64,000 bases of DNA from assembly GCA_963664705.1 (NCBI GenBank), contig OY761556.1:4448001-4512000 (forward strand), in the 5' to 3' direction. Positions 5,777 to 38,636 of this stretch are shown in pieces. Numbering within the stretch: position 1 is the stretch's first letter; each line of letters begins with the position of its first letter. This stretch comes from Acidobacteriota bacterium (GTDB lineage: Bacteria > Acidobacteriota > UBA6911). Under the pieces are notes generated by a model. That model did no database searches. It saw nothing but the letters and a program-made list of their open reading frames with translations, and was not told where the DNA came from. Position numbers and translations under genes: made by a program.

Positions 5777-7159
5777 CTAATCCGCTTCGCCATTCTCTCG
5801 CCCGGAATATGGAATTCCAAGCTGGCGAATCTTTCGATACAGATTGCTTCGCTCTATGCGCAAGGCCTGTGCGGCTCGGGCCACATTGCCTTTAAACTCC
5901 ATCAGCTTCTGAAGAATAAACTCCCGCTCAAAGCGATCGCGCGCTCCCTGAAGAGAGCTTTCTTCCCCCGGTTCAGTTTGCGCCGGCAGAGCCCGCTGCA
6001 GAATCGGCTCGGGCAGGTCATAAATATCGATGCGGGTCTGCGGAGTCATGATCACCATGCGTTCCATGATGTTCCTCAATTCGCGCACGTTCCCGGGCCA
6101 CGCATAGTTTTCAAGCGTTTCCACCGCCTTGCGGGTCAACAGGGGCGGCTTCCTGCCATACTTCCGGGCAAAATCCTCCAGGAAGTAAGTCGTAAGGAGG
6201 GAGATATCCTCTCTGCGTTCTCTCAAAGGGGGTAACTGGAATGGAAGGACGTTCAATCGATAGTAGAGATCTTCGCGGAAATTCCCAAGTTCGATCTCGC
6301 GCTCCAGATTTTTGTTAGTGGACGCAATCACGCGGACATCCACCTTCACCGAGACATTTCCCCCGACGGGCGTAAACCGCTGTTCCTCGAGAACGCGGAG
6401 AACCTTCGCCTGGGTTTTCGAACTCATATCGCCGACTTCGTCAAGAAAGAGCGTGCCTCCATCCGCCTGGGCAAACTTCCCTTCCTTGTCTTCCGATGCT
6501 CCCGTGAAAGATCCTTTCACATGGCCGAAAAGCTCGCTTTCGATCAGTTCCTCGGGAATCGCCGCGCAGTTCATTTCCACAAAGGCAGCATCACACCGCG
6601 GGCTTTGCAGGTGGATCAGGTGCGCCACGAGCTCTTTGCCCGTGCCGTTTTCACCATAGATGAGCACGCGGCCGTTGGAAGGAGCGGCAAAGGCTATTTG
6701 CTGCCGCAACGCCTGCATGGGGACCGAGTCCCCGATCATCACATATTTCTGTTCGACCTGCTCACGAAGGATACGGTTCTCTTCCTGCAGTTGATTCTGG
6801 TGCAGCGCATTCTTCACCACAAGAATGGTCTTTTCCAGGGAAAGCGGCTTTTCTACGAAATCAAAAGCACCCAGCTTTGTGGCGCGCACCGCCGTTTCGA
6901 TAGAGCCGTGCCCCGAAATCATAATAACCACGGCGTCCGGAGAAATGCGCCGTATCTGAGCCAGTGCCTTCAGGCCATCCATTCCAGGGAGCCAGACGTC
7001 CAGGAGCACAACAGGAAAGCTTCTTTTGGCCAGAATATCGAGGGCTTCTTCGGCAGACGAAACAGCCTGAGAGTCAAACCCCACATCCTCGAGAATTCCC
7101 TGGATGGAGCTTTGCACACCCTTTTCGTCATCAACGATCAAGACTGCCGGTCGAGTCAT
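5777..7159 (-). CDS. ntrX: sigma-54-dependent response regulator, NtrX-like
   Basis: REC domain (VDD, LLDVW), AAA+ (GENGTGKE, ESELFGH.KGSFTGA, WPGNVREL), Fis HTH; downstream of the NtrY-like kinase. Confidence 0.85.
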   Translation of the reverse strand: MTRPAVLIVDDEKGVQSSIQGILEDVGFDSQAVSSAEEALDILAKRSFPVVLLDVWLPGMDGLKALAQIRRISPDAVVIMISGHGSIETAVRATKLGAFDFVEKPLSLEKTILVVKNALHQNQLQEENRILREQVEQKYVMIGDSVPMQALRQQIAFAAPSNGRVLIYGENGTGKELVAHLIHLQSPRCDAAFVEMNCAAIPEELIESELFGHVKGSFTGASEDKEGKFAQADGGTLFLDEVGDMSSKTQAKVLRVLEEQRFTPVGGNVSVKVDVRVIASTNKNLEREIELGNFREDLYYRLNVLPFQLPPLRERREDISLLTTYFLEDFARKYGRKPPLLTRKAVETLENYAWPGNVRELRNIMERMVIMTPQTRIDIYDLPEPILQRALPAQTEPGEESSLQGARDRFEREFILQKLMEFKGNVARAAQALRIERSNLYRKIRQLGIPYSGRENGEAD

Positions 7160-7176
7160 AGGAGCCTATTGTAGCA

Positions 7177-7208
7177 TTGACGATTGATGAATGACGATTG
7201 ACGATTGA
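7177..7208. repeat. short 7-nt tandem repeat (TTGACGA-like) in the ntrY-ntrX spacer
   Basis: ttgacgattgatgaatgacgattgacgattga. Confidence 0.7.
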
Positions 7209-7214
7209 AAACGT

Positions 7215-9488
7215 CTAAATGGGAAGATCGATGATGATTCTGGTACCCAAAGGCACATTGGCTTCCGCGCGCACGTGCCCGTGATGGTCCGAAACGATCT
7301 GCCTGACAATAGCCAACCCCAATCCCGTCCCCCCCTTCCGTGTTGAGAAGTACGGGAGGAACAGGCTGTCCTGGTATTCCTCGGGAAAACCTCGGCCAGT
7401 ATCGCCGATCTCTATTCGTACCGAATCCTGTTCGGAATTGCGGCGCGTGCGCAGGTACAAAACCCTGTTGCCCGAATTCTGCGCCATCGCTTCCAGCGCA
7501 TTATCGAAAAGATTGATAAACACACGCTTCATCTGCTCCGTATCCAGCTTTAGTTTTGGAAGGGTTGAATCAAATTCCTTTTGAATACGGATTCCCTGCA
7601 TCCGGCCATCATAGAGGCTCAGAGTCCCTTCCAGAATTCGATTCAGGTCTGCCTCCTCAAGCCGCACTTCCGGAAGGCGGGCGAATCGGGAGAACTCGTC
7701 AACCAGGTTTTTTAACGAGCCGGCCTCATTGATGATGACCTGCACACACTCTGACAGCAGCTTATCGAATTTTTGAAATTCCTCTTCCCACTGTCCGGAA
7801 GATCCGAACCGAGGACCATCATTGAGCTGTCGGTATCTTCGCAGTATGCGCTCTGCGGAAAGCTGGATCGGCGTTAAAGGATTTTTGATTTCGTGAGCCA
7901 TCCGCCTCGCCACTTCCTGCCACGCGGACATTTTTTCCATCCTGAGCAGTTCCGTCATGTCATCCAGAACAACGACCCAGCCTCTCCTTAGACCGGCGTT
8001 ATCCACCAGCGGCGTCACGGTTGCCGCAATTTGAAGGACCTTTCCGGAAAACGTCAGCTCGATATTCCGCACCACTGTTCCGAGAACGGCGGATTTCTGC
8101 AGGAGAGAACGAAGTGTTTCGAATGCCTGCGGCTGAAGGACTGCATCGAGCGTCGACTCGGTCACCGAGTCCCCGGTCTGCAGCATCTGCATCGCGGCAC
8201 GGTTCATGGTCCTGACATGAAAGCTGCTGTCGAGCGAAATGACTCCCGTGGTAATCGTCTGGAGAATGGTTTCGATATAGCGGCGTCGATCGGCATTCTC
8301 GGCATTGGTCTGACGCAGGCTTTGCTGGGCGGCCTCTATGCGCTTCTCGTTTTCCTCGAGATCAATGGTCATCCGGTTGAAGGAGGAAACCAGGCTTCCC
8401 AATTCATCAAATGCCTGGCATTCCACCCTGTAGGCAAGGTTGCCCGCGGCCAGGGCGGCTGCACCCTGGGCCAGCGCCTGAATTGGGACGGTAATGCGTT
8501 TGGCCAGATACAGCGCAAACCATGAGAAGGCGAATATGATCAGAAGGGTGGCAAGAACCAGCATGAGCAGTGCATTGAATCGGAGTGCAACCTTCTCCTG
8601 CTGCAGTTGCTTGTATTTGTCGATGGCTTCCTGAACCGAATCAACGCGGAACTGGATGCTTCGCTGCCGGACCGTTTCGGTAAGAACCCCCCCGGCAACC
8701 TTCCCCTGCGCATCCCAGATCGGAGCCGCGGCGAACATGATCTCGGGCATGGGGTCTCCGGGGGTCATTCGCTGGACTCGGAAATCCTGCTTCCCCAGGA
8801 TAGCCTGGCGCACCAGGCCGTCCATCAGATCATGATGCCAGGGTTTGGAACGGGCGGAGCCGGATTCCGCAATCGGCCTGGATTGACGATCGTAGACTTG
8901 AATGGCCCCAAGTGCATATTCGCGGCAGAGCTTTCTCAACTTTTGCTGCATTTCCACGCGGGATTCTGAAGAGAAATCCTGCGGCAACAGGGATCCGGCA
9001 ATATTCGCTGCAAAATACTTCGCCTGCTCTCCCATTTCCGCATAATATTCATCCGCAAGGAGCCGGCTGTTTTCCATCATCTGGGCCGGCGGCTTCAGAA
9101 ACCACTTTTCGATGGATGAGCTGATCAGAGTATAGGCCAGCAGAAACAGCAAAAGCGCCGGCAGCAGCGAAAGCACGATAAACGTGCGCACCATCTTGGT
9201 TTTAAATCCGCTCCCCAGTGCCCCGCTCTTCTTTTCAAAATATAGCTTGATCAGATTTCGCCCAAGAACGGTCGCCAGGATCAGGAGCGCCAGGACAACA
9301 ATAATTGTTATTGTCCACAGCAGGAAGGTCATCCGCACAAATCGCGGACTCCCCACGGAAGTGATATTCAGAAAAATTTGCGTAGCGGCCAGCGAGACCA
9401 AAAGAAATGCAATAGTCGCGACGATATACCGGCGCGCCCGCGATCCGTCCCGCCTGGGCGGGTTTGTGAAGCTGGAAAGTTCGCTCAT
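7215..9488 (-). CDS. ntrY: NtrY-like sensor histidine kinase (TM, periplasmic, HAMP, PAS, HisKA, HATPase)
   Basis: AWQEVARRMAHEIKNPLTPIQLSAER H-box typical of NtrY; NLFDNA, DTGRG, FSTRKGGTGLGL. Confidence 0.88.
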   Translation of the reverse strand: MSELSSFTNPPRRDGSRARRYIVATIAFLLVSLAATQIFLNITSVGSPRFVRMTFLLWTITIIVVLALLILATVLGRNLIKLYFEKKSGALGSGFKTKMVRTFIVLSLLPALLLFLLAYTLISSSIEKWFLKPPAQMMENSRLLADEYYAEMGEQAKYFAANIAGSLLPQDFSSESRVEMQQKLRKLCREYALGAIQVYDRQSRPIAESGSARSKPWHHDLMDGLVRQAILGKQDFRVQRMTPGDPMPEIMFAAAPIWDAQGKVAGGVLTETVRQRSIQFRVDSVQEAIDKYKQLQQEKVALRFNALLMLVLATLLIIFAFSWFALYLAKRITVPIQALAQGAAALAAGNLAYRVECQAFDELGSLVSSFNRMTIDLEENEKRIEAAQQSLRQTNAENADRRRYIETILQTITTGVISLDSSFHVRTMNRAAMQMLQTGDSVTESTLDAVLQPQAFETLRSLLQKSAVLGTVVRNIELTFSGKVLQIAATVTPLVDNAGLRRGWVVVLDDMTELLRMEKMSAWQEVARRMAHEIKNPLTPIQLSAERILRRYRQLNDGPRFGSSGQWEEEFQKFDKLLSECVQVIINEAGSLKNLVDEFSRFARLPEVRLEEADLNRILEGTLSLYDGRMQGIRIQKEFDSTLPKLKLDTEQMKRVFINLFDNALEAMAQNSGNRVLYLRTRRNSEQDSVRIEIGDTGRGFPEEYQDSLFLPYFSTRKGGTGLGLAIVRQIVSDHHGHVRAEANVPLGTRIIIDLPI

Positions 9489-14146: not shown

Positions 14147-16573
14147 CTATTTTGCTGCAAGAACTTCCGCCACGGTGCGGGCGAGGGTTTTGACCGAAAA
14201 CGGCTTCTGAATAAAGCCATGGCCAGCACTGAGAATATCGTCCTGATTTATGATATCGGCCGTATACCCGGACATAAAAAGGCACTTGATCTCCGGATAA
14301 ATGGCCTGGATAACCGCAGAGAGGTTCCGCCCATTCATTTCCGGCATGATCAAATCCGTCAGCAGAAGATGGATCGACCTGGAATGCTCTTTCGCAATCT
14401 GGATAGCCTCCGTCGGACCGGATGCCGCGAGGACTGTGTATCCGCGGTTTTTCAAAACCTTTTCGATCATCGTCAGGATGGATTGTTCATCTTCCACAAG
14501 TAGAATGGTCTGAGAACCATGCTGTGGCTCATTATCTTCCGCTGGTTCAACATGCGCCTCCACCTCCCGATGATGCGGTAGATGTACTCTGACGACAGTC
14601 CCCTGTCCAACTTCACTATTTACTTCGATAAAGCCTTTGTTCTGTTGGACAGCTCCATAGACCATGGAAAGGCCAAGTCCGGTCCCCACCCCGACTGCCT
14701 TTGTTGTGAAAAAGGGCTCAAAGATGTGGTCTAGAACTTCTTTATCCATACCATGGCCGTTATCCTCAACCGCAAACCAGACATATTCGCCCGGAACAAC
14801 CTCTTCGCCAAAACTGCTGCGGGCTTCACCGATCGTCGTATTGCCGGTCGTAATCGTTATCTGCCCCAGGCCGCCAATTGCATCGCGTGCATTGACGCAT
14901 AGATTGACAATGATCTGATCTACCTGCGAAGGATCTACCTTAACCGGCCAGAGATTGTGCACCGGCTTCCACTGAATGGAAATATTCTCGCCAATCATTC
15001 GCTCCAGCATCCTGATCATCCCGGCAATTGTCGCGTTCAGATCCAGCACTCTCGGCGCGACAGTCTGCCTGCGGGCGAAAGCAAGCAGTTGCTGCGTCAG
15101 GTCACTCGACCTTTTTGCAGCTTTCTGAATCTCGCTGAGATCCTCGAAAACCGGCTGATCCGGGGGAACCGTCTGAAGGGCCATTTCTGCCCGTCCAAGA
15201 ATCACTCCGAGCATGTTGTTGAAATCGTGAGCAATTCCTCCGGCAAGCCTGCCGGTTGATTCCATTTTCTGAGACTGGGTCAACTGCTCCTGTATCTTCG
15301 CTTTCTCCTGATCTGCCCGGATCCGCTCCGTTACTTCCGTCAAGGTCAGCACCAGGCTGCCCACGGTTCCATCCGACTCTTTGACTGGAATCAGCCCCCA
15401 ATCCCAAAATTTGGTGCCTCGCTCGGGGTGCTCCGGGTATTCAAATGGCCGGGCCAACGCAAAATAGGGCTCGCCGGTATCCACCACACGCTGAAAGATG
15501 GCCTGGTTTTCCGGATGCGGGTACAGTTTGAAGTGGTTCTTTCCTGCGAAAAAACCCGGCTCGTGATCATCGGTTTCCGCGTAGGCGCGGTTGACCCAAA
15601 TGAAATTGAATTGAGTATCGAGGTAAGCCGCAAGAACGTAGGTGTGGTCGAGGACCGCCGAGAGAATCACATTAACTTCGGCCAGCCGCTTTTCGCTCTG
15701 CCGCAAAGCCCTCTCGGCTCGCTTCCGCTCAGTGATATCCTCCACCACCGCCAAATGAAAATCTGCCGTCTCTCCTGTGCTCCACATAGGCACCACAGTC
15801 AGGTTCACCCAGACAATGGAGCCATTCTGGTGGATATAACGCTTCTCGATCGTAAACTTGGGGACATGCCCCTCGACCAGCAGCCGCATGTTATCAAGAT
15901 CTTTTTTGAGGTCTTCCGGATGCGTGATGGATTTAAAGCTGCGCATCCTCATCTCTTGTTGCGTATAGCCCACAATCGAGCAGTATTTCTGATTGATGGC
16001 CACAAGCTGGCCATCGCCGGTCCTGGTCAGGGCAATGCCAACCGCATCCTGCTCAAACAGCTTTCTGAAGTACTTGTTTGAATTCTGCAGTGCATCCTCG
16101 GCGCGTCTCCGTGCAAGGACGTGCTCCGTAACATCGGTGCCGCTGCCCAGGACTCGCGTGCAGGCACCGTCCGGATCGATGAGCGGCAGATAGGTAAGAT
16201 CGATATATCGCTCTTCCGGCGGGGCTCCCTCCGACCGGATCAACATGATCGGCATCTCATGTCCGACGAATGGCTCGCGCATTGCCATTACATGGGTGAT
16301 TTTATCCCGATAACCGCTTTGAATTGCTTCCGGGATGACCTCGAACGCGGGCTTGCCTATCAGATTGTGGCGACCCACAAGCCGGCAATACGCTTCGTTC
16401 ACAAATTCGAAGACAAGGTCAGGGCCTCGCAATATGTGCATGAACGAAGGAGATGAACGGAAGGCTTCTTCAAATAATTTCAAGCGCTCGAGCTGAAGGG
16501 AATGATTATGGACAGACATTGCCGATGCCGGATCTGGGCCATCGCGCAGGATAGTCATTATGTGCCCCCCCAT
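14147..16573 (-). CDS. cytoplasmic hybrid histidine kinase (3 PAS, HisKA, HATPase, REC); start may be 16558
   Basis: GRLAGGIAHDFNNML, NLCVNARDA, FEPFFTTK..G.GTGLGLS, LLVEDE...LLTD. Confidence 0.93.
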   Translation of the reverse strand: MGGHIMTILRDGPDPASAMSVHNHSLQLERLKLFEEAFRSSPSFMHILRGPDLVFEFVNEAYCRLVGRHNLIGKPAFEVIPEAIQSGYRDKITHVMAMREPFVGHEMPIMLIRSEGAPPEERYIDLTYLPLIDPDGACTRVLGSGTDVTEHVLARRRAEDALQNSNKYFRKLFEQDAVGIALTRTGDGQLVAINQKYCSIVGYTQQEMRMRSFKSITHPEDLKKDLDNMRLLVEGHVPKFTIEKRYIHQNGSIVWVNLTVVPMWSTGETADFHLAVVEDITERKRAERALRQSEKRLAEVNVILSAVLDHTYVLAAYLDTQFNFIWVNRAYAETDDHEPGFFAGKNHFKLYPHPENQAIFQRVVDTGEPYFALARPFEYPEHPERGTKFWDWGLIPVKESDGTVGSLVLTLTEVTERIRADQEKAKIQEQLTQSQKMESTGRLAGGIAHDFNNMLGVILGRAEMALQTVPPDQPVFEDLSEIQKAAKRSSDLTQQLLAFARRQTVAPRVLDLNATIAGMIRMLERMIGENISIQWKPVHNLWPVKVDPSQVDQIIVNLCVNARDAIGGLGQITITTGNTTIGEARSSFGEEVVPGEYVWFAVEDNGHGMDKEVLDHIFEPFFTTKAVGVGTGLGLSMVYGAVQQNKGFIEVNSEVGQGTVVRVHLPHHREVEAHVEPAEDNEPQHGSQTILLVEDEQSILTMIEKVLKNRGYTVLAASGPTEAIQIAKEHSRSIHLLLTDLIMPEMNGRNLSAVIQAIYPEIKCLFMSGYTADIINQDDILSAGHGFIQKPFSVKTLARTVAEVLAAK

Positions 16574-24213: not shown

Positions 24214-24297
24214 TCTTCGCTCTCAAAAGCAGCCACTAATTCCACGAATTCCCACGAATTTAGTTGATCAAATTGTATCCAGCCCAATTAGATAGGT

Positions 24298-24663
24298 ATG
24301 TTGCTGAACAAGGAACTATCCTATCGCATTGTGGGAGCAGCCATGGAGGTGCACCGTGAACTCGGTTGCGGCTTCCTCGAAGCAGTGTACGAAGACGCAC
24401 TGTGTCACGAGTTCATTCTGAGCAGCATCCCATACCAGCGCCAGGTGGAGATTCCAATCTATTATAAGGGAGTTCGGATGGGTAAATATTTCGCCGATCT
24501 CCTGGTCGATGGGACGATCATTGTTGAAATCAAAGCTGCCTCCGGCTTTGCAGAGAGGCATATAGCTCAGGCGCTGCATTATCTGGCTGCAACGGATCTT
24601 AGATTGGCAATCCTCATTAACTTTGGCACTCAATCCCTGCAAACAAAGCGTGTTATCCGGTGA
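24298..24663 (+). CDS. GxxExxY family protein (PD-(D/E)XK nuclease-like)
   Basis: IVGAAMEVHRELGCGFLEAVY (GxxExxY), ADLLV...IVEIK, Q..HYL, LINFG. Confidence 0.93.
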   Translation: MLLNKELSYRIVGAAMEVHRELGCGFLEAVYEDALCHEFILSSIPYQRQVEIPIYYKGVRMGKYFADLLVDGTIIVEIKAASGFAERHIAQALHYLAATDLRLAILINFGTQSLQTKRVIR

Positions 24664-24762
24664 TTCGTGTAAATTCGTGGAATTCGAAGCCAAGCAGCCA
24701 CTAATTCCACGAATTCCCACGAATTTTATTGATCAAATTGTATCCAGCTCAATTAGATAGGT

Positions 24763-24903
24763 ATGTTGCTGAACAGTGTACGAAGATGCACTGTGCCACG
24801 AGTTCATTCTGCGTTGCATTATCTGGCTGCAACGGATCTTAGATTGGCAATCCTCATTAACTTTGGCACTCAATCCCTGCAAACAAAGCGTGTTATCCGG
24901 TGA
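24763..24903 (+). pseudogene. internally deleted GxxExxY copy 2; still an open 46-aa mini-ORF
   Basis: MLLNSVRRCTVPRVHSALHYLAATDLRLAILINFGTQSLQTKRVIR*; lacks the equivalents of 24311-24384 and 24421-24571. Confidence 0.8.
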
Positions 24904-24991
24904 TTCGCGTAAATTTGTGGAATTCGAAGCCAAGCAGCCACTAATTCCACGAATTTTTTGATCAAACTGTATCCAGACCAATGAGACAGGC

Positions 24992-25132
24992 ATGTTGCTG
25001 AACAGTGTACGAAGAGGCACTGTGTCACGAGTTCATCCTGCGCTGCATTATCTGGCTGCAACGGATCTTAGATTGGCGATCCTCATTAACTTTGGCACTC
25101 AATCCCTGCAAACAAAGCGTGTTATCCGGTGA
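24992..25132 (+). pseudogene. internally deleted GxxExxY copy 3; still an open 46-aa mini-ORF
   Basis: MLLNSVRRGTVSRVHPALHYLAATDLRLAILINFGTQSLQTKRVIR*; same two deletions as copy 2. Confidence 0.8.
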
Positions 25133-25324
25133 TTCGTGTAAATTCGTGGAATTCGTGGCCGTTTTTGTTTTTGCAATCTGAAATTATCATGTTGTGGTAT
25201 GCTTGCGCACTCATGACAATGCAGTATCAGCATGAAGCAGTAGCCCGGCATCATTGTCTGAAAAATTGTTTTAAGCTGAAATACGCCCAATTTCAGCCAT
25301 TCTGATCACTAAAAGGAGCGAAGC

Positions 25325-26686
25325 ATGGTTGATTATGTAAATATTTTTATGTCCCGCCTGCAGGCCAAGAATCCCGGTGAAACGGAATTCCACCAGGCTG
25401 TTCAGGAAGTTGTTGAATCTCTCTCTCTTGTTCTGGACAGGCATCCGGAATATCGGTCTGCCAAGATTCTGGAACGCATCGTTGAGCCCGAACGCGTCCT
25501 CATGTTCCGGGTACCCTGGACAGATGACCAGGGAGAAATCCAAGTAAACCGCGGATTCCGCATTGAAATGAACAGCGCTATCGGCCCATACAAAGGCGGC
25601 CTGCGTTTTCATCCTTCCGTAAATCTCGGCATTCTGAAATTCCTGGCCTTCGAACAGGTATTCAAGAACAGCCTGACGACGCTTCCTATGGGCGGTGGCA
25701 AGGGCGGATCGGACTTTGATCCTAAGGGGAAAAGCAACAATGAAGTCATGCGCTTCTGCCAGAGCTTCATGACCGAGCTCAGCCGACATATCGGCCCCAA
25801 CACGGACGTTCCGGCCGGAGACATCGGCGTCGGCGGACGGGAGATCGGTTATATGTTCGGTCAGTACAAGAGACTGCGCAATGAGTTCACCGGTGTATTG
25901 ACCGGCAAAGGCTTGAACTGGGGCGGATCCCTAATCCGGCCGGAAGCCACCGGCTATGGCTGCGTTTATTTCTGCGCCGAAATGTTGGCCACTCGCAACC
26001 AGACCATGGAAGGCAAGATTTGCCTTGTTTCCGGAAGCGGAAACGTATCTCAATACACCATCGAAAAGATCCTGCAACTGGGCGGCAAAGTTGTCACATG
26101 CTCCGACTCCGACGGCTACATCTATGATGAAGAAGGCATCGATGAAAAGAAGCTGGCATACATCATGGAACTGAAGAACGTGAAGAGGGGAAGAATCAAG
26201 GCCTACGTCGAAAAGTACAAGAACGCCGTGTACACACCGGTGGATCGGTCCAAGGATTACAATCCTCTCTGGGATCACAAAGCAGACTGCGCATTCCCAA
26301 GCGCGACCCAGAATGAAATCAACGCGAAGGATGCCCGCAATCTGTTGAAGAACGGTGTCTACGTGATCGGAGAAGGCGCCAACATGCCGACGCACTTCGA
26401 AGGCGTGCGCCTCTTCCTCGATGCGAGGGTTCTGTACGGACCGGGAAAAGCAGCCAATGCCGGCGGCGTGGCGGTATCCGGACTGGAAATGTCCCAGAAC
26501 AGCATGCGTCTACCCTGGACCAAACAGGAAGTGGACAACAGGCTGGGCATGATCATGAAGAGCATCCATGCCACATGCGTGGAATGTGCAGATCGTTTCG
26601 GCACTCCTGGCAATTACGTCAACGGTGCCAACATCGGCGGATTCCTCAAAGTTGCGGATGCAATGATCGATCAAGGCTTGGTCTAG
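25325..26686 (+). CDS. gdhA: NADP-specific glutamate dehydrogenase
   Basis: GPYKGGLRFHPSV, FEQVFKNSLT.LPMGGGKGGSDF, DVPAGDIGVG, RPEATGYG, SGSGNV, GKAANAGGVA.SGLEMSQN. Confidence 0.96.
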   Translation: MVDYVNIFMSRLQAKNPGETEFHQAVQEVVESLSLVLDRHPEYRSAKILERIVEPERVLMFRVPWTDDQGEIQVNRGFRIEMNSAIGPYKGGLRFHPSVNLGILKFLAFEQVFKNSLTTLPMGGGKGGSDFDPKGKSNNEVMRFCQSFMTELSRHIGPNTDVPAGDIGVGGREIGYMFGQYKRLRNEFTGVLTGKGLNWGGSLIRPEATGYGCVYFCAEMLATRNQTMEGKICLVSGSGNVSQYTIEKILQLGGKVVTCSDSDGYIYDEEGIDEKKLAYIMELKNVKRGRIKAYVEKYKNAVYTPVDRSKDYNPLWDHKADCAFPSATQNEINAKDARNLLKNGVYVIGEGANMPTHFEGVRLFLDARVLYGPGKAANAGGVAVSGLEMSQNSMRLPWTKQEVDNRLGMIMKSIHATCVECADRFGTPGNYVNGANIGGFLKVADAMIDQGLV

Positions 26687-26707
26687 TCGAGTCTTAGGGA
26701 CTTCTTC

Positions 26708-26771
26708 AGCCACGAATTGCACGACTTCAGCGAACCGTTTATGGCTCGTGTATTGCGTGCAATTCGTGGCT
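26708..26771. repeat. gene-less CACGAATT inverted-repeat element (REP/MITE-like), possibly also a terminator after gdhA
   Basis: Perfect 16-bp IR agccacgaattgcacg / cgtgcaattcgtggct followed by a T-rich tail; same ends as the GxxExxY cassette. Confidence 0.85.
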
Positions 26772-26804
26772 TTTGTTTTATACTGATAGCCGGGAATCAA
26801 CTAT

Positions 26805-29786
26805 ATGGCCGAAAGACATTTGGATCCGCTCTGGATCGAACACGGTTACGGAACGCGCTTTCAGGGCTTTCAGAACCTGATGCGCCACAGGATCAGAGAC
26901 GTTCTTCTTGTTTCAAGTCTGTACGATCTCTACCTGTTTGAGGAGGATGGCCGATTTGACGAGCTTATCAGCAATGAATACCAGAAGCTGAATCTGAGCC
27001 ATTCCCCTGAACTGACGCGTGTATCTTCCGGAAAGGAAGCGATCACTCTCGCGAAAGAGGAGCGCCGTTTTGACCTCATCCTGACGACATTGCATGTCGA
27101 GGATATGACGGCCGTCCAGCTGGCGGAACAGGCACGAGCGGCAGGGGTGGAAATTCCAATCGTCCTCCTGGCCTATGACAGCAGAGAACTGAAAGACCTC
27201 AAGGCGCACAATTACACGGCCGCATTCGACCGTGTGTTTGTGTGGCAGGGAGACTTCCGGCTCATTGTCAGCATCATCAAACACCTGGAAGACCGGATGA
27301 ATGTCGACCACGACACACGCCTGGTCGGCGTCCAGTCCATCCTCTTCATCGAAGACAACATCCACTATTACTCTACCCTCCTCCCGATCCTGTACACGGA
27401 GCTGCTTAACCAGTCGCAGCGGCTCATTTCGGAGGGGATCAACCTTTCGCACAAAGTTCTGAAGACGGTAGCGAGACCCAAGATTCTTCTTTGCCAGACC
27501 TACGAAGAAGCCTGGCACTTCTACGATTCGTACAGGGAACACATCCTCGGAGTCATTTCCGATATCGATTTTCCGCGCAATGGAAAGCCCGATCATGGCG
27601 CCGGGCTCAATTTTGCCAGGGCGATCCGAAGTGAACACCCGGAGCTTCCCATCCTGCTGCAATCGCTGACTTCCGACTACGAGAAGCAGGCCAAGGAACT
27701 GAACCTCTCTTTCATGCCGAAGGGTTCGCCAAACCCTTCCCAGATCCTTCGGCAGTTCATGACCGAATATTTCAGTTTCGGAGATTTTATTTTTCGAACT
27801 CCCGAGGGACACGAAGTAGGCAGAGCCAATGATCTGAAGAGTCTCCGTGAACAGCTCGAATATGCCCCTGAGGAAAGCGTGCGTTTTCATGCAGAGCGGA
27901 ATCACTTTTCCAACTGGTTGAAGGCTCGAACGGAATTTGGGCTTGCGCACAAACTCCGCCCCAGGAAGGTTTCCGATTTCCCGACAGTTGCGGAGCTGCG
28001 ACAGGACCTGATCTCCTCCCTGGGAGCATATACGCGGTCGCAGCAGCGCGGGCTGATTACCGACTTCAAGAAAGACACCTTTGATCCCGAGACCAGTTTT
28101 GCCCGAATCGGCGGCGGGTCGCTCGGCGGCAAGGCGCGCGGCCTGGGGTTTGTGAATACGTTGATCAACAATTACGACGTGCGCCGTCAATTTGCGGGCA
28201 TTCAGATCGCGGTCCCTCCGGCGGTAGTTCTCGGGACAGACCTTTTCGACCGTTTCCTGGACGAAAACAATCTCCGGAAATTTGCGCTGGAGTGCACGGA
28301 CGATGCCGAGATCACCCGAAGGTTCATTGAAAGCGGCATATTCCCGGAAGATCTGCTGGGAGACCTGGCCTCTTTCCTGCACCTGATCCGGGAGCCGCTG
28401 GCAGTGCGGTCCTCGAGCATGCTCGAAGATACTCAGTATCATCCGTTTGCCGGTGTTTACGAAACCTACATGATCCCCAACGATCATCCGGATCCATTTG
28501 TCCGGCTTGGGCAACTGGTGACGACCATCAAACGCGTTTATGCCTCGACTTTCTACCAGTGCGCCAAGGATTACTTCAAAGTCACCGACTACAAGCTTGA
28601 AGAAGAGAAGATGTCGGTCATCGTTCAGAAAATGGCAGGAGTGCAGCACGGCACGCGCTTCTATCCCGATTTCTCCGGAGTGGCCAAATCCTATAACTAT
28701 TATCCGGTACCGCCACAAAGAGCCTTGGACGGAATTGTCTCCGTAGCGCTCGGCTTGGGAAAAACCATCGTGGACGGAGGAATCACGGTCCGATTCTGCC
28801 CGAAATATCCCAACCACATACTTCAGTTCTACTCGCCGCGGGAGGCGTTGAATACGAGCCAGACGCAGTTCTTCGCCCTCGACCTGAGCGCCGCTCCGGC
28901 ACAGCCGGCCGAAACGAGCGATGTTCAGGTGAAGGCCTTCGGGATTGATGTCGCCGAAGAAGACGGATCCCTGCAACATGTGGCTTCAACCTATTCAGCG
29001 GAAAACGATGCCCTATACGAGGGAACTTCCAGATCGGGTCCCCGAATTGTGACCTTTGCCCCGATACTTAAGAACAAGATATTCCCGCTGCCCCATATCC
29101 TGGAGCTTTTGCTCGATATGGGCAGTTGGGGAATGGGGGCCCCGGTTGAGATGGAATTTGCCGTCACAATGTCGAGGAAATCGAATCAACTGAGAGATTT
29201 CGCACTTCTGCAATTGCGCCCCCTCGGCATGAGCAAGGATTCTGATCCGCTGATATTTGAAGAGGTCGCGGAAGACAGCCTGATTTGTCGAAGCACCCAG
29301 GTTCTTGGACATGGCGTGTCCAATGATATCCACGATATCGTTGTTGTGGATATGGACCGGTTCAACCGGGCCAGGAGCAAGGATGCCGCCCATGAGGTAT
29401 CGCAATTCAATGAAAAGCTGGTGGACGAAAAACGGCCCTACCTGCTTATCGGCGTAGGCCGGTGGGGATCTCTCGACCCGTGGCTTGGGATTCCGGTAAA
29501 ATGGGATCAGATCTCGGGTGCAAAGGTGATTGTTGAAGCCGGATTCAAAGATATGGAAGTAGACCCGTCCCAGGGTTCACACTTCTTCCATAACATTACC
29601 TCGTTCCGCATCAGCTACTTCACTGTGAATTCAATGACCCAGGATGGTTTTATCGACTGGGAGTGGCTTCGCACCAACCCTGCGGTCGAGGAAAAACAAT
29701 TTGTACGCCACATCCGGCTGGCAAAGCCGGTGGTGGCAAAGGTCGATGGACATCGAAATAAAGGCGTCATCTTGAAACCGGAGTAG
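26805..29786 (+). CDS. receiver-domain + PEP/pyruvate-binding (PPDK_N, ATP-grasp-like) domain protein
   Basis: Two REC-like regions (LFIED...VISD...LLQS...PK); GGKARGL and LAVRSSS.LED..PFAGVY PEP-synthase N-domain motifs; no recognisable phospho-His swivel domain. Confidence 0.85.
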   Translation: MAERHLDPLWIEHGYGTRFQGFQNLMRHRIRDVLLVSSLYDLYLFEEDGRFDELISNEYQKLNLSHSPELTRVSSGKEAITLAKEERRFDLILTTLHVEDMTAVQLAEQARAAGVEIPIVLLAYDSRELKDLKAHNYTAAFDRVFVWQGDFRLIVSIIKHLEDRMNVDHDTRLVGVQSILFIEDNIHYYSTLLPILYTELLNQSQRLISEGINLSHKVLKTVARPKILLCQTYEEAWHFYDSYREHILGVISDIDFPRNGKPDHGAGLNFARAIRSEHPELPILLQSLTSDYEKQAKELNLSFMPKGSPNPSQILRQFMTEYFSFGDFIFRTPEGHEVGRANDLKSLREQLEYAPEESVRFHAERNHFSNWLKARTEFGLAHKLRPRKVSDFPTVAELRQDLISSLGAYTRSQQRGLITDFKKDTFDPETSFARIGGGSLGGKARGLGFVNTLINNYDVRRQFAGIQIAVPPAVVLGTDLFDRFLDENNLRKFALECTDDAEITRRFIESGIFPEDLLGDLASFLHLIREPLAVRSSSMLEDTQYHPFAGVYETYMIPNDHPDPFVRLGQLVTTIKRVYASTFYQCAKDYFKVTDYKLEEEKMSVIVQKMAGVQHGTRFYPDFSGVAKSYNYYPVPPQRALDGIVSVALGLGKTIVDGGITVRFCPKYPNHILQFYSPREALNTSQTQFFALDLSAAPAQPAETSDVQVKAFGIDVAEEDGSLQHVASTYSAENDALYEGTSRSGPRIVTFAPILKNKIFPLPHILELLLDMGSWGMGAPVEMEFAVTMSRKSNQLRDFALLQLRPLGMSKDSDPLIFEEVAEDSLICRSTQVLGHGVSNDIHDIVVVDMDRFNRARSKDAAHEVSQFNEKLVDEKRPYLLIGVGRWGSLDPWLGIPVKWDQISGAKVIVEAGFKDMEVDPSQGSHFFHNITSFRISYFTVNSMTQDGFIDWEWLRTNPAVEEKQFVRHIRLAKPVVAKVDGHRNKGVILKPE

Positions 29787-29790
29787 GACT

Positions 29791-29997
29791 TTGGCCGAAA
29801 ACAGCGAAGAAGATAAGAAAGGATATGCGAAAGCACGCAAGGTGTTCGAAAACTGCCCGCATTGCGGTCAGGAATTGAGCCCCTGGCAACAGGTGCTGCT
29901 TTCAATCGACCGGGCTCTGGTATGTAAGAACTGCTGGTACCGGATCATCCTTGATATCTCGGAAGATGAAACTTCCCCACAACCGAATAAGGAATAG
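29791..29997 (+). CDS. small Zn-ribbon protein
   Basis: CPHC...CKNC; TTG start 4 bp after the upstream stop; ends 3 bp before the next ATG. Confidence 0.7.
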   Translation: MAENSEEDKKGYAKARKVFENCPHCGQELSPWQQVLLSIDRALVCKNCWYRIILDISEDETSPQPNKE

Positions 29998-30000
29998 GCA

Positions 30001-31248
30001 ATGCAATCCTACAACTCGTTTGAGGTCGCTCAGACGGAGATCCGGGCGGCCGCAAAGGTATTAAACCTTGATCAGGCCACGCTGGATCTGCTGCTTTGGC
30101 CCCAACGGGAGTTTCAGTTCACACTCCCCGTGAAGATGGACAATGGGGAAACAGTCATCCTGCGCGGCTATCGTATCCAGCATAATTTCGCACGCGGCCC
30201 GGCGAAGGGCGGGATACGATTTCACCCTGATGAAACCATCGATACCATGCGAGCCCTGGCGGGCTGGATGACATGGAAGACTGCGGTGGCAGACCTTCCT
30301 TTGGGCGGCGGCAAGGGCGGAGTGGTTTGCGATCCGCGCAAAATGTCGGCCAGGGAGTTGGAAAACACCGCCCGCGCCTATGTGCGCGCGATCTGGCAGC
30401 ACATTGGCATAGACCGGGATGTACCGGCTCCGGATGTCTATACCAATCCTCAGACCATGGCATGGATGATGGATGAGTATGAAACGATAACCAATCAGCA
30501 TCAGCCCGGCGTGATGTCGAACAAACCGTTATCTCTCGGTGGAAGCGAAGGACGGCGCGATGCCACGGCCCGCGGCGGTGTCACGGTCGTCAGAGAAGCC
30601 TGCCGGGCTTTTGGCGTGGATCCGCGTGGACCGTACGCCATCCAGGGTTTCGGCAGCACCGGCCAGCGCATTGCCATGTTTCACCGCGAATTGCTGGGAG
30701 GAGGAAAGCTGATTGCGGTCTCCGATTCGAGCGGCGCGGTTTACAACCCGGATGGATTCAATCCGAAGGATCTGGTGAATCACAAGCTGCGTACCGGATC
30801 GGTCACCGGTTTTCCAGGATCTCAATCGATCGAAATCAATTCTGTACTGGAACTGGACGTTTCGATTCTCTACCCGGCTGCACTCGAGAATGCAATCAAC
30901 GCCGGAAATGCGAAAAAGATTAAGGCAAAGATTATCTGCGAACTGGCAAACGGGCCGACAACACCGCAGGCGGACCGGATCCTGTTCGAAAAGGGAGTGC
31001 ATGTCATTCCGGATTTATTGGCCAACGCAGGAGGCGTAATCGGATCCTACCTGGAGATGGTGCAAAACCGGGAGGCATACTACTGGAAGGAATCGGCGGT
31101 ACACGATACTCTCGATGCGACCCTCACGCGAGCCTACCAGACGGTAGCCCATGGGGCAAAAGCGAGGAAAATCCCGATGCGCACGGCTGCGATGGTGGTG
31201 GCTGTTGCTCGTGTCGCGGAAGCCTGCAAACTCCGCGGCTGGGTATAG
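30001..31248 (+). CDS. second Glu/Leu/Phe/Val dehydrogenase, with divergent motifs
   Basis: GPAKGGIRFHP, MTWK, LPLGGGKGG, DVPAPDV, ELANGPTT, ANAGGV. Confidence 0.92.
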   Translation: MQSYNSFEVAQTEIRAAAKVLNLDQATLDLLLWPQREFQFTLPVKMDNGETVILRGYRIQHNFARGPAKGGIRFHPDETIDTMRALAGWMTWKTAVADLPLGGGKGGVVCDPRKMSARELENTARAYVRAIWQHIGIDRDVPAPDVYTNPQTMAWMMDEYETITNQHQPGVMSNKPLSLGGSEGRRDATARGGVTVVREACRAFGVDPRGPYAIQGFGSTGQRIAMFHRELLGGGKLIAVSDSSGAVYNPDGFNPKDLVNHKLRTGSVTGFPGSQSIEINSVLELDVSILYPAALENAINAGNAKKIKAKIICELANGPTTPQADRILFEKGVHVIPDLLANAGGVIGSYLEMVQNREAYYWKESAVHDTLDATLTRAYQTVAHGAKARKIPMRTAAMVVAVARVAEACKLRGWV

Positions 31249-31303: not shown

Positions 31304-32476
31304 ATGGCTATTCCACTGATTTTCTATTACCACCGGCTGAATTGCTATAGCTTCAATGCGCTCGCTGGAGCGCTCGACGCCGACCCATTTTTCGAAGACT
31401 TGAAGATCGACCTGGCGCTGTCTGTCGACCAACTCCAGGCGATGGCGGCTGACAGCATCAACCGCCATGGCTGTGCCATCGTCGCCCTCTCGATTCTTAC
31501 CTGCCAATTTGTGGACACCCATCGAATGATCGGAGAGCTGCGGTCGCGGTTCGGGCAGGAAATCACAATCCTGGCGGGTGGCCCGCATGCGACAGCCTGC
31601 CCGGAACAGGTTCTTCAATCGGGCGCCGACATCATTTTTCAGGGCGAGGCGGAAGCGATCTTTCCCGCTGTTCTCAAAAGAGTTATCGAAAAACTGCCAT
31701 GCAAACCTGTATATGCCCCGGCAGGCCGGGTTGCGCTCGACGACTACTGTTCGTTTTCGCCTAAACGGGGCATGTTCGGACCCATTGAGATTACGCGTGG
31801 CTGCGCGTTCGCCTGCAACTACTGCCAGACCTCTCACATTTTCGGCACACAACTGCGGCACAGAAGCATTGACGCCATTGTCCGGCAGGCGGAATCGCTT
31901 CGCTCCGTCAATCGCAAGGTGGTTCGACTGCTCTCGCCCAACGCCTTTTCCTACGGATCCCCGGATGGGCGGCAGATCCATCTGCCATCCATGCGTGAAC
32001 TGCTGTCGGCCCTGCGCTCCAGCCTCGAGAAAAACACGAAGATCATATTCGCTCATTTCCCGTCGGAGGTCCGACCCGAACATGTTGTCCCAGAAACACT
32101 TGAGCTGTTAAAGGAATTTGCGGGAAACGATGAGATCGTCATCGGGGCTCAGTCCGGCAGCAACCGGATGCTCGACGCCTGCCATCGGTCCCACGACATT
32201 GCCAGTGTATTGCAGGCCGTAGCACTGGCTCGAAAATACGGGTTTAAGATCATCGTGGACTTTATTTTCGGACTGCCCGGGGAGACTCCGGAGGATCTTA
32301 CAGAAACATTGAAGGTCATGGAAGAGGTGGTACGGCTGGGGGCGCGCATTCACCCGCATATTTTTGCGCCGCTCCCCCAAACGCCCTTTGCATCCGCACA
32401 ACCCGGGGCCATCTCCGCTCAGGTAGCGGCAGCCCTGGAAGGACTCAGGAATAAACGGGGAGTATATGGATGTTAG
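31304..32476 (+). CDS. B12-binding domain / radical SAM protein (TIGR04013-like)
   Basis: AGGPHATA, GEAE, PIEITRGCAFACNYCQT, SPNAFSYG, FPSEVRPE, GAQSGS. Confidence 0.85.
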   Translation: MAIPLIFYYHRLNCYSFNALAGALDADPFFEDLKIDLALSVDQLQAMAADSINRHGCAIVALSILTCQFVDTHRMIGELRSRFGQEITILAGGPHATACPEQVLQSGADIIFQGEAEAIFPAVLKRVIEKLPCKPVYAPAGRVALDDYCSFSPKRGMFGPIEITRGCAFACNYCQTSHIFGTQLRHRSIDAIVRQAESLRSVNRKVVRLLSPNAFSYGSPDGRQIHLPSMRELLSALRSSLEKNTKIIFAHFPSEVRPEHVVPETLELLKEFAGNDEIVIGAQSGSNRMLDACHRSHDIASVLQAVALARKYGFKIIVDFIFGLPGETPEDLTETLKVMEEVVRLGARIHPHIFAPLPQTPFASAQPGAISAQVAAALEGLRNKRGVYGC

Positions 32477-38577: not shown

Positions 38578-38636
38578 TGCCACGAATTACACGAATTATA
38601 CCGAATCAGGCCTCAATATTCGTGCAATTCGTGGCA
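38578..38636. repeat. gene-less CACGAATT inverted-repeat element
   Basis: tgccacgaattacacgaat / attcgtgcaattcgtggca (18 of 19 complementary). Confidence 0.85.

Follow-up and report, generated by a model that had tools for sequence, protein, structure and literature searches.

The closest described precedent for the protein considered here is mycobacterial VadK (Rv1127c), a barrel-less histidine (di)kinase derived from pyruvate phosphate dikinase (PPDK). According to the abstract, Discussion and other passages of its report (bioRxiv 10.1101/2025.10.30.685616), VadK autophosphorylates His422 and co-precipitates enzymes of the methylcitrate cycle. In rifampin phosphotransferase (RPH), R117 and T136 are needed for rifampin phosphorylation, as given in the sections of PMC4844700 covered here. 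A 993-aa protein comparable with both is encoded in a 64,000-nt stretch of DNA (the window) from an Acidobacteriota bacterium (contig OY761556.1, positions 4,448,001 to 4,512,000). Its gene lies among genes for two glutamate dehydrogenases (GDHs) and a zinc-ribbon protein. This is a real, widespread and uncharacterised module, probably built on a kind of barrel-less dikinase that is controlled by a receiver and partnered with GDH. Its genes and domains are listed below; PEP is phosphoenolpyruvate and pLDDT the predicted local distance difference test.

25325 to 26686, + strand: gdhA, family-I hexameric glutamate dehydrogenase, 453 aa; above the NF006929 cut-off; motifs K90, K114, K126, D166, T193 and S385 intact.
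26805 to 29786, + strand: gene for the 993-aa protein, with the five domains that follow.
26889 to 27302, + strand: pseudo-receiver, residues ~29-166, without the canonical Asp or Lys.
27327 to 27788, + strand: receiver 2, residues ~175-328, site E183/D184/D253/S287/K306, with a helical insertion of ~40 residues.
27789 to 28049, + strand: small alpha/beta linker domain, weakly DUF5752-like, residues ~329-415, W371 invariant; PF19027 E 0.005, below the cut-off.
28062 to 29237, + strand: PEP-synthase-type ATP-grasp, residues ~420-811, with K443, R535, T554, E784, Q803 and R805; PF01326 E 5e-33.
29250 to 29786, + strand: predicted divergent swivel phospho-histidine domain, residues 816-993; model pLDDT 93 when folded alone.
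29791 to 29997, + strand: CxxC...CxxC zinc-ribbon protein (CPHC...CKNC), 68 aa, predicted adaptor for gdh2.
30001 to 31248, + strand: gdh2, family-II Glu/Leu/Phe/Val dehydrogenase, 415 aa; K69/K93/K105/D145 kept, TGK replaced by SNK and GxGN by GxGS.

Like VadK as its report's passages describe it, the 993-aa protein joins an ATP-grasp to a predicted His swivel, lacks the barrel and has a putative regulatory link to central metabolic enzymes. VadK is a two-domain truncated PPDK tied to the methylcitrate cycle, whereas the 993-aa protein has an ATP-grasp of the PEP synthase type, two N-terminal receivers, a swivel invisible to Pfam and a link to GDH across phyla. By analogy, it most plausibly works like VadK. 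Its ATP-grasp scores nearer to PEP-synthase-type models, which suggests an origin separate from that of VadK, the latter being compared by description only. The likeness to RPH (5hv1, 5hv3; PMC4844700, same sections) covers equivalents of R117 and T136 (R535 and T554 by alignment) and of K22 and E297 (by motif), as well as a C-terminal His swivel. Unlike RPH and, in the sources' parts covered, HpeHI, MarK and PigC/HapC, the 993-aa protein has no rifampin-binding or other acceptor domain mid-chain and carries N-terminal receivers. The first two domains of PEP synthase and PPDK (2ols, 1dik, 1kbl) take the same relative pose as residues 420-993, but the PEP/pyruvate TIM barrel is lacking here and GGxTSHAA is replaced by SQGSHFF. 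A receiver plus PPDK architecture that PMC5847659 (2018) counts among response regulators whose output is predicted to be enzymatic is most likely the same. The sections of that paper covered here only name the architecture, with no function, His-domain or GDH link, and "glutamate" occurs in them once, in an unrelated context.

The whole-protein AlphaFold2 model (pLDDT 89) was built without templates from 120 diverse homologues. Pfam places PPDK_N (PF01326) at residues 439-812 (E 5e-33), with weak matches to a receiver at 69-127 and to DUF5752 at 340-413. The nucleotide site of this ATP-grasp is intact, as in PEP synthase and PPDK: K443, R535 and Q803 are each present in 120/120 homologues, T/S554 in all, E784 in 119 and R805 in 116. 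The domain aligns with the GGKN, AVRSS, ETY, DIEWA and VQARP motifs of a PEP synthase-like protein (hhalign 97.6%). Receiver 2 has the acidic pair, phospho-Asp, Ser/Thr and Lys of a response regulator, aligns structurally in the model with solved receivers at Z 13-15, and keeps D253 in 110/120 homologues and in 55/55 alignment rows. Receiver 1 has S37/S38, T94/T95 and W147 where the acidic pair, the Asp and the Lys of a canonical site would stand. A pseudo-receiver and a receiver in tandem recall the layout of PleD-type input modules.

The C-terminal domain was recognised by predicted structure and conservation and not by a sequence profile; PF00391 (His domain) gives no match to the 993-aa protein in Pfam, and a profile search of the PDB also misses the swivel. 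Compared with 48,161 chains, residues 816-993 have His-swivel domains as their four best matches and Enzyme I at ranks 6, 7 and 10. The best single-domain match is RPH 5hv1 756-867 (Z 7.8, rmsd 3.2, 112 aligned), followed, down to Z 7.3, by 2e28 (pyruvate kinase of B. stearothermophilus, C-terminal domain) and the PPDK entries 1vbg and 2fm4. Residues 420-993 superpose as a single body on PEP synthase 2ols 4-467 (Z 26.5, 363 aligned, 4.5 A), as well as on RPH 5hv3 6-866 and PPDK 1dik/1kbl about 5-511; PPDK 2r82, in the "second conformational state", fits only at 14.6 A. Because of this one-body superposition, residues 816-993 are predicted to dock on the ATP-grasp as the swivel does in PEP synthase, RPH and PPDK. 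The whole-model superposition is a stronger test than the Z score of the isolated domain. His926 (codon 29580-29582) stands in SQGSHFF at a helix start and is the most conserved histidine (118/120 homologues); the motif SxG[ST]HF survives in paralogues of only ~26% identity. The helix and then strand after His926 are spaced as in TSHAAVVARxxxKPCVVG, and from this spacing His926 appears to be in register with the catalytic His of those enzymes.

The last domain of the model is 816-993, and no match to the PEP/pyruvate barrel PF02896 was found in the 993-aa protein in Pfam. In the whole genome, PF00391 and PF02896 match one 937-aa PPDK-type and one 613-aa Enzyme I-type frame, both elsewhere, and no free-standing PF02896 barrel gene was found. 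The NF041857 score is 31.6 bits against a cut-off of 999. There is also no substrate-binding domain between the ATP-grasp (end ~811) and the swivel (start ~816), unlike in RPH/PigC-type dikinases. Lacking the barrel and the substrate domain, the protein is outside both PEP synthase/PPDK and RPH/PigC. An earlier, sequence-only reading of this DNA had described four co-oriented genes, the last three separated by 4 and 3 bp, two GDHs of different subfamilies, a 68-aa CxxC/CxxC protein, a degenerate first receiver with an ED/D/S/K second one, the ATP-binding domain of PEP synthase, and no pyruvate barrel, and had concluded that the large protein is not a PEP synthase. All of this was recovered. 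The same reading saw no phospho-His, which is most likely wrong because of the fold matches, the near-invariance of His926 and the whole-model superposition.

The family is large (7,969/8,000 scored candidates; 1,279 representatives at E<=1e-30), and one relative with 82% identity carries the label Acidobacteriota, in line with a probable acidobacterial host. The 993-aa gene is single-copy in its own genome, and in the genus a match is found in 23/24 relatives, mostly with the same gene order. A set of 71 GTDB loci, drawn from the best 80 of 911 confirmed stretches and hence biased to close relatives, includes Ignavibacteriota, Bacteroidota, Acidobacteriota, Gemmatimonadota, Eisenbacteria, Myxococcota, Bdellovibrionota, Fibrobacterota and others. 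GDH lies in the flank of 50/71 of these loci and within 5 kb in 34 of the 44 with full flanks. The nearest GDH is upstream on the same strand in 36 loci, convergent in 7, downstream on the same strand in 6 and divergent in 1. In an even draw of the phylum Bacteroidota, the family occurs in 31/151 genomes, and 41/52 copies (25/31 genomes) are <=8 kb from GDH. The family is present in 103/201 genomes of the own phylum. Its ~1000-aa receiver type accounts for 67 copies among the 103, with G000, three genomes seen before and genomes holding only ~590-aa members or distant paralogues omitted; 58/67 are <=8 kb from GDH, against a chance of ~0.8% each, or ~0.6 expected.

Co-occurrence follows the same pattern. 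Family-I GdhA is encoded in 64/67 receiver-type carriers vs 12/98 non-carriers (11/80 + 1/18), and in 8/60 tested Bacteroidota non-carriers (60 of 120). Duplicated modules retain paralogue-specific partners, as in Ignavibacteriota (L037/L044/L046/L097 vs L035/L039/L041/L048) and in L082 and L093. No third gene is conserved across phyla in the 71 loci, and no barrel gene either. The neighbourhood statistics with gdh, which the sequence-only reading had named as a check, give strong linkage across phyla, together with co-occurrence. A mirror-distance correlation of 0.65 over 55 linked pairs was set aside as confounded by shared descent.

Evidence of the Rosetta-stone kind was also rejected. Only 3/102 long GdhA relatives carry PF01326, all with a truncated GDH; two are singletons resembling read-through and one is a chimera that breaks both partners. 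Long receiver-type relatives (10 scanned) have N-terminal extensions and not GDH fusions, and the long open frames in 13 fetched regions are not fusions. In Caldisericia assemblies, P0391 and P0393 start as the large protein (up to ~635) and, past a TGYG-like stretch common to both partners, continue as GdhA's C-terminal half, so that neither partner is intact. Many ~875-aa fusions of NADP-GDH with PF06245 (P0297-P0374), several labelled Candidatus Izemoplasma, are unrelated to the module.

The reading that we consider likeliest, and hold tentatively, is that the 993-aa protein is a receiver-gated, autophosphorylating, barrel-less dikinase that passes phosphate to the neighbouring GdhA and so switches its activity. 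By the chemistry of PEP synthase and RPH, His926 would attack the beta-phosphate of ATP, with AMP and Pi released and His926~P formed. The swivel would hand this phosphate over in trans. Because the chain has no acceptor domain, delivery should be to a partner or a receiver, and GdhA would be the phosphoryl acceptor. An unlinked kinase or a small donor would phosphorylate Asp253 and so gate the reaction, and the Zn ribbon may recruit the 993-aa enzyme to the second GDH. Transfer to GdhA comes first in our ranking, since both the core and its linkage to GDH persist in members that have no receiver. The sequence-only reading had proposed an ATP-dependent sensor or modifier controlling the GDHs. 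Its tie to GDH stands, by neighbourhood and co-occurrence, and the 993-aa protein may control the GDHs; a passive ATP sensor fits less well than a complete autophosphorylating dikinase core.

Several observations weigh against transfer to GdhA. The Z scores of 7.3-7.8 for residues 816-993 fall in a range that the tool describes as common where a model has no clear match. Run on this domain alone, Foldseek found nothing at E<=0.001, only weak rows, mostly swivel-fold proteins, and hhalign against 30 swivel domains, run with controls, stayed at <1% probability. The register of His926 on the catalytic His is read from secondary-structure spacing. A comparison of 63 linked with 20 unlinked GdhA sequences gave no linked-specific His, Ser, Thr or Tyr, the top differences being V36, W199 and D449, and no intact GDH fusion was found in the fusion search. 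GdhA works without the large protein in other bacteria (it occurs in the 12/98 non-carriers above). Away from GDH lie 9/67 own-phylum and 11/52 Bacteroidota copies, many of them on short contigs, and the ~775-aa and ~880-aa paralogues have no GDH within the fetched stretches. The genomes are related and the GDH-linkage counts overstate their independence, so these counts are descriptive. For VadK, no phosphoryl acceptor is reported in the abstract, Discussion and other passages of its report (bioRxiv 10.1101/2025.10.30.685616).

The alternative that survives best, although unlikely, is a self-contained relay. His926~P would phosphorylate either Asp253 of the same protein or a receiver on a partner, and the conformation so produced would bind and regulate GDH without modifying it. 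In such a "histidine kinase", a dikinase would take the place of the HATPase core. This relay is ranked second because no kinase is co-conserved: a histidine kinase was detected with three kinase queries in 2/44 full-flank loci, below the ~6 expected from the density in the own genome, yet D253 and its pocket are conserved (55/55). The lack of a linked-specific acceptor residue in GdhA is in line with it, as are NarL-type regulators near the large gene in L040 and L047, where no kinase was detected in the fetched flanks. Such regulators were also seen in L038, L041 and L090, there with a kinase. On the other side, orphan receivers served by distant kinases are common, and the tandem receivers look like PleD-type input. 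The receiver-less ~580-aa members keep the His and the ATP site and adjoin GDH, so that a receiver is not required as the acceptor.

The sequence-only reading had offered an NtrY-like kinase of the window as one possible phosphodonor. This candidate is unsupported and was rejected: the kinase (7215-9488) is ~17 kb from the module, adjoins its own sigma-54 response regulator (the pair spans 5777-9488), and no kinase is co-conserved with the family. A hybrid PAS kinase is also encoded in the window at 14147-16573.

A distinctly unlikely explanation is a small-molecule dikinase or ligase with its acceptor site on a second subunit, the GDH hexamer or another protein; the compound that it phosphorylates or activates would be a metabolite of the 2-oxoglutarate/glutamate node. 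Two-component HpeHI offers a parallel, and the well-characterised relatives by fold (PEP synthase, PPDK, RPH and HpeI) all use small molecules. The extra conserved surface motifs of the His domain (GRWGS, LGIPV, W900) could make a pocket, and NfnAB-like genes adjoin in several Terriglobia-type loci. However, the chain has no substrate-binding domain, no third gene is conserved across phyla, and the varied sensor-like N-terminal inputs (receivers, repeats and others) fit a signalling output better.

Improbable enough to be placed below this is an energy-charge sensor that would bind ATP/AMP or autophosphorylate reversibly and regulate GDH by binding alone. GDH is regulated by binding partners elsewhere: by GltAB in the case of B. 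subtilis GudB, a likeness in protein-level control taken from parts of the source, and by the GdhB and APRT homologue partners of GdhA in Thermus or by actinobacterial GarA, all of them systems without a dikinase. An ATP-sensing role is also raised by the authors of VadK in the passages mentioned (bioRxiv 10.1101/2025.10.30.685616). That His926 and every ATP-site residue are conserved points to turnover instead. Last, a PEP synthase or PPDK with its barrel in trans, near GDH for metabolic reasons, is hardly credible, since the best match of the ATP-grasp and His domain to PEP synthase (Z 26.5) and the label "putative PEP synthase" given to relatives by some sources stand against a genome with an intact PPDK-type protein and no free PF02896 barrel, the absence of a conserved barrel gene in the 71 loci, and a swivel surface diverged past profile detection.

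Returning to phosphotransfer to GDH, the paralogues bear on its generality. In 16 fetched regions, ~580-aa members consist only of the ATP-grasp and His domain and stand directly beside a family-II GDH. Paralogues of ~1065 aa have a C-terminal nucleotidyltransferase (PF01909 E 1e-6 in L143; FGS...D.D in seven printed sequences) and are often followed by a gene for a calcineurin-like metallophosphoesterase. They were seen beside family-II GDH at L143:4329-8488 and L132:5886-10828 and in L139, L140, L142, L144, L145 and L147. The nucleotidyltransferase and metallophosphoesterase are a possible writer/eraser pair for nucleotidylation of GDH, and these GDH-linked paralogues suggest covalent modification. 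The ~880-aa paralogues (L141:5108-7750, L146:1344-3962) have an N-terminus that looks KaiC/RecA-like by eye, with no Pfam match and no adjoining GDH. Receiver-type members P0171, P0213 and P0210 carry one to several N-terminal unnamed GAF-like repeats (ERLKELxCIN...QYPE...EGPFLxEER), which suggests added sensor inputs. The ATP-grasp and His core is a modular output enzyme, and most, not all, of its branches are GDH-linked. A wider claim is possible but more doubtful than that of transfer to GdhA: a dikinase core with a cryptic phospho-His swivel would replace the HATPase kinase and covalently switch GDH, as part of a widespread, undescribed signalling system with modular inputs, a Zn-ribbon adaptor and nucleotidyltransferase-bearing paralogues.

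The two GDHs of the module share 30% identity, and tblastn found no other GDH gene in the single contig of 6.9 Mb that makes up the genome. GdhA scores 754 bits with NF006929, an NADP-GDH equivalog whose cut-off is 536. The best model for gdh2, of the family-II type, is NF040817 GdhA_Arch at 518 bits, below its cut-off of 750; the glutamate-pocket residues V346 and S349 are present, and TGK is changed to SNK/TNK/TDK across the gdh2 clade. Two different GDH genes side by side are also found in known GDH-control systems, but here gdh2 keeps the catalytic lysines and aspartate and the two enzymes are of different families. The Zn-ribbon protein matches no named family in Pfam and other family libraries, and no longer relatives were found. 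Among loci L001-L147, its homologues directly follow the large gene in 34/34 cases. In 27 of these 34 a gdh2-type gene (>55% identity) comes next, and 27/28 gdh2-type genes are preceded by the Zn gene. The Zn ribbon may serve as an adaptor for the second GDH.

The gaps between the four open reading frames are 118, 4 and 3 bp in order, and the first holds two further features.

26708 to 26779, + strand: terminator-like hairpin from a genome-wide GCCACGAATT palindromic element, a perfect inverted repeat of 16 bp and then a T-rich tract; fold z -4.55.
26779 to 26784, + strand: TATACT, likely -10 box of the promoter of the 993-aa gene.

The hairpin arms are 26708-26723 and 26756-26771, and a 10-mer of the element has 164 copies genome-wide. 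A simple terminator scan does not list the hairpin, its loop exceeding the limit of the scan; a consensus promoter scan does not list the TATACT site. The pattern TA[TC]A[CA]T occurs <=60 nt from the start in 14/19 same-genus loci vs 1.8% of 60-mers picked at random from the genome; most of these are coding, which makes the control weak. Because the 118-bp gap holds the hairpin and the conserved box, gdhA and the 993-aa/Zn-ribbon/gdh2 unit are probably separate transcripts despite their co-orientation.

Other features of the surroundings were noted. Positions 24227-25166 of the window hold a GxxExxY protein gene (24298-24663, TIGR04256) and then two truncated ~230-bp repeats, with CCACGAATT palindromic elements on the flanks; elements of this type also make the hairpins at 26708-26771 and 38579-38635. 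A TIGR04013 B12-binding radical SAM gene (31304-32476) begins 55 bp past gdh2. In L012, L014 and L022, gdh2 is absent and a TIGR04013-like gene directly follows the Zn ribbon gene. NfnAB/sulfide dehydrogenase-like genes, with a possible tie to NADPH supply, lie downstream or nearby in L057, L058, L062, L063, L070, L071, L072 and L086.

Database labels for the family vary between PEP synthase, histidine kinase and CheY-like. No paper on its function or GDH link was found in a literature search that covers subscription papers thinly and has Bacteroidota transposon-sequencing and transcriptome supplements outside it. The family is unmentioned in the parts covered of PMC4539542, PMC5552732 and bioRxiv 2023.05.11.540287.

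Naming His926, Asp253 and GdhA makes the role of the family directly testable. Carbon and nitrogen metabolism meet mainly at GDH, and little is known of how this enzyme is switched in anaerobes that lack the enteric Ntr scheme. The B. fragilis enzyme is reversibly inactivated after ammonia shock. Genes 3' of B. thetaiotaomicron gdhA, possibly including a member of the family, reportedly affect GDH activity in trans, according to the title of a 1996 paper by Baggio and Morrison; a dikinase-GDH switch, if true, may explain these trans-acting genes. Such a switch would be for GDH what control by GlnE/GlnD is for glutamine synthetase. With it, the dikinase superfamily would reach beyond small-molecule acceptors to the control of proteins, for which VadK is the sole precedent found.

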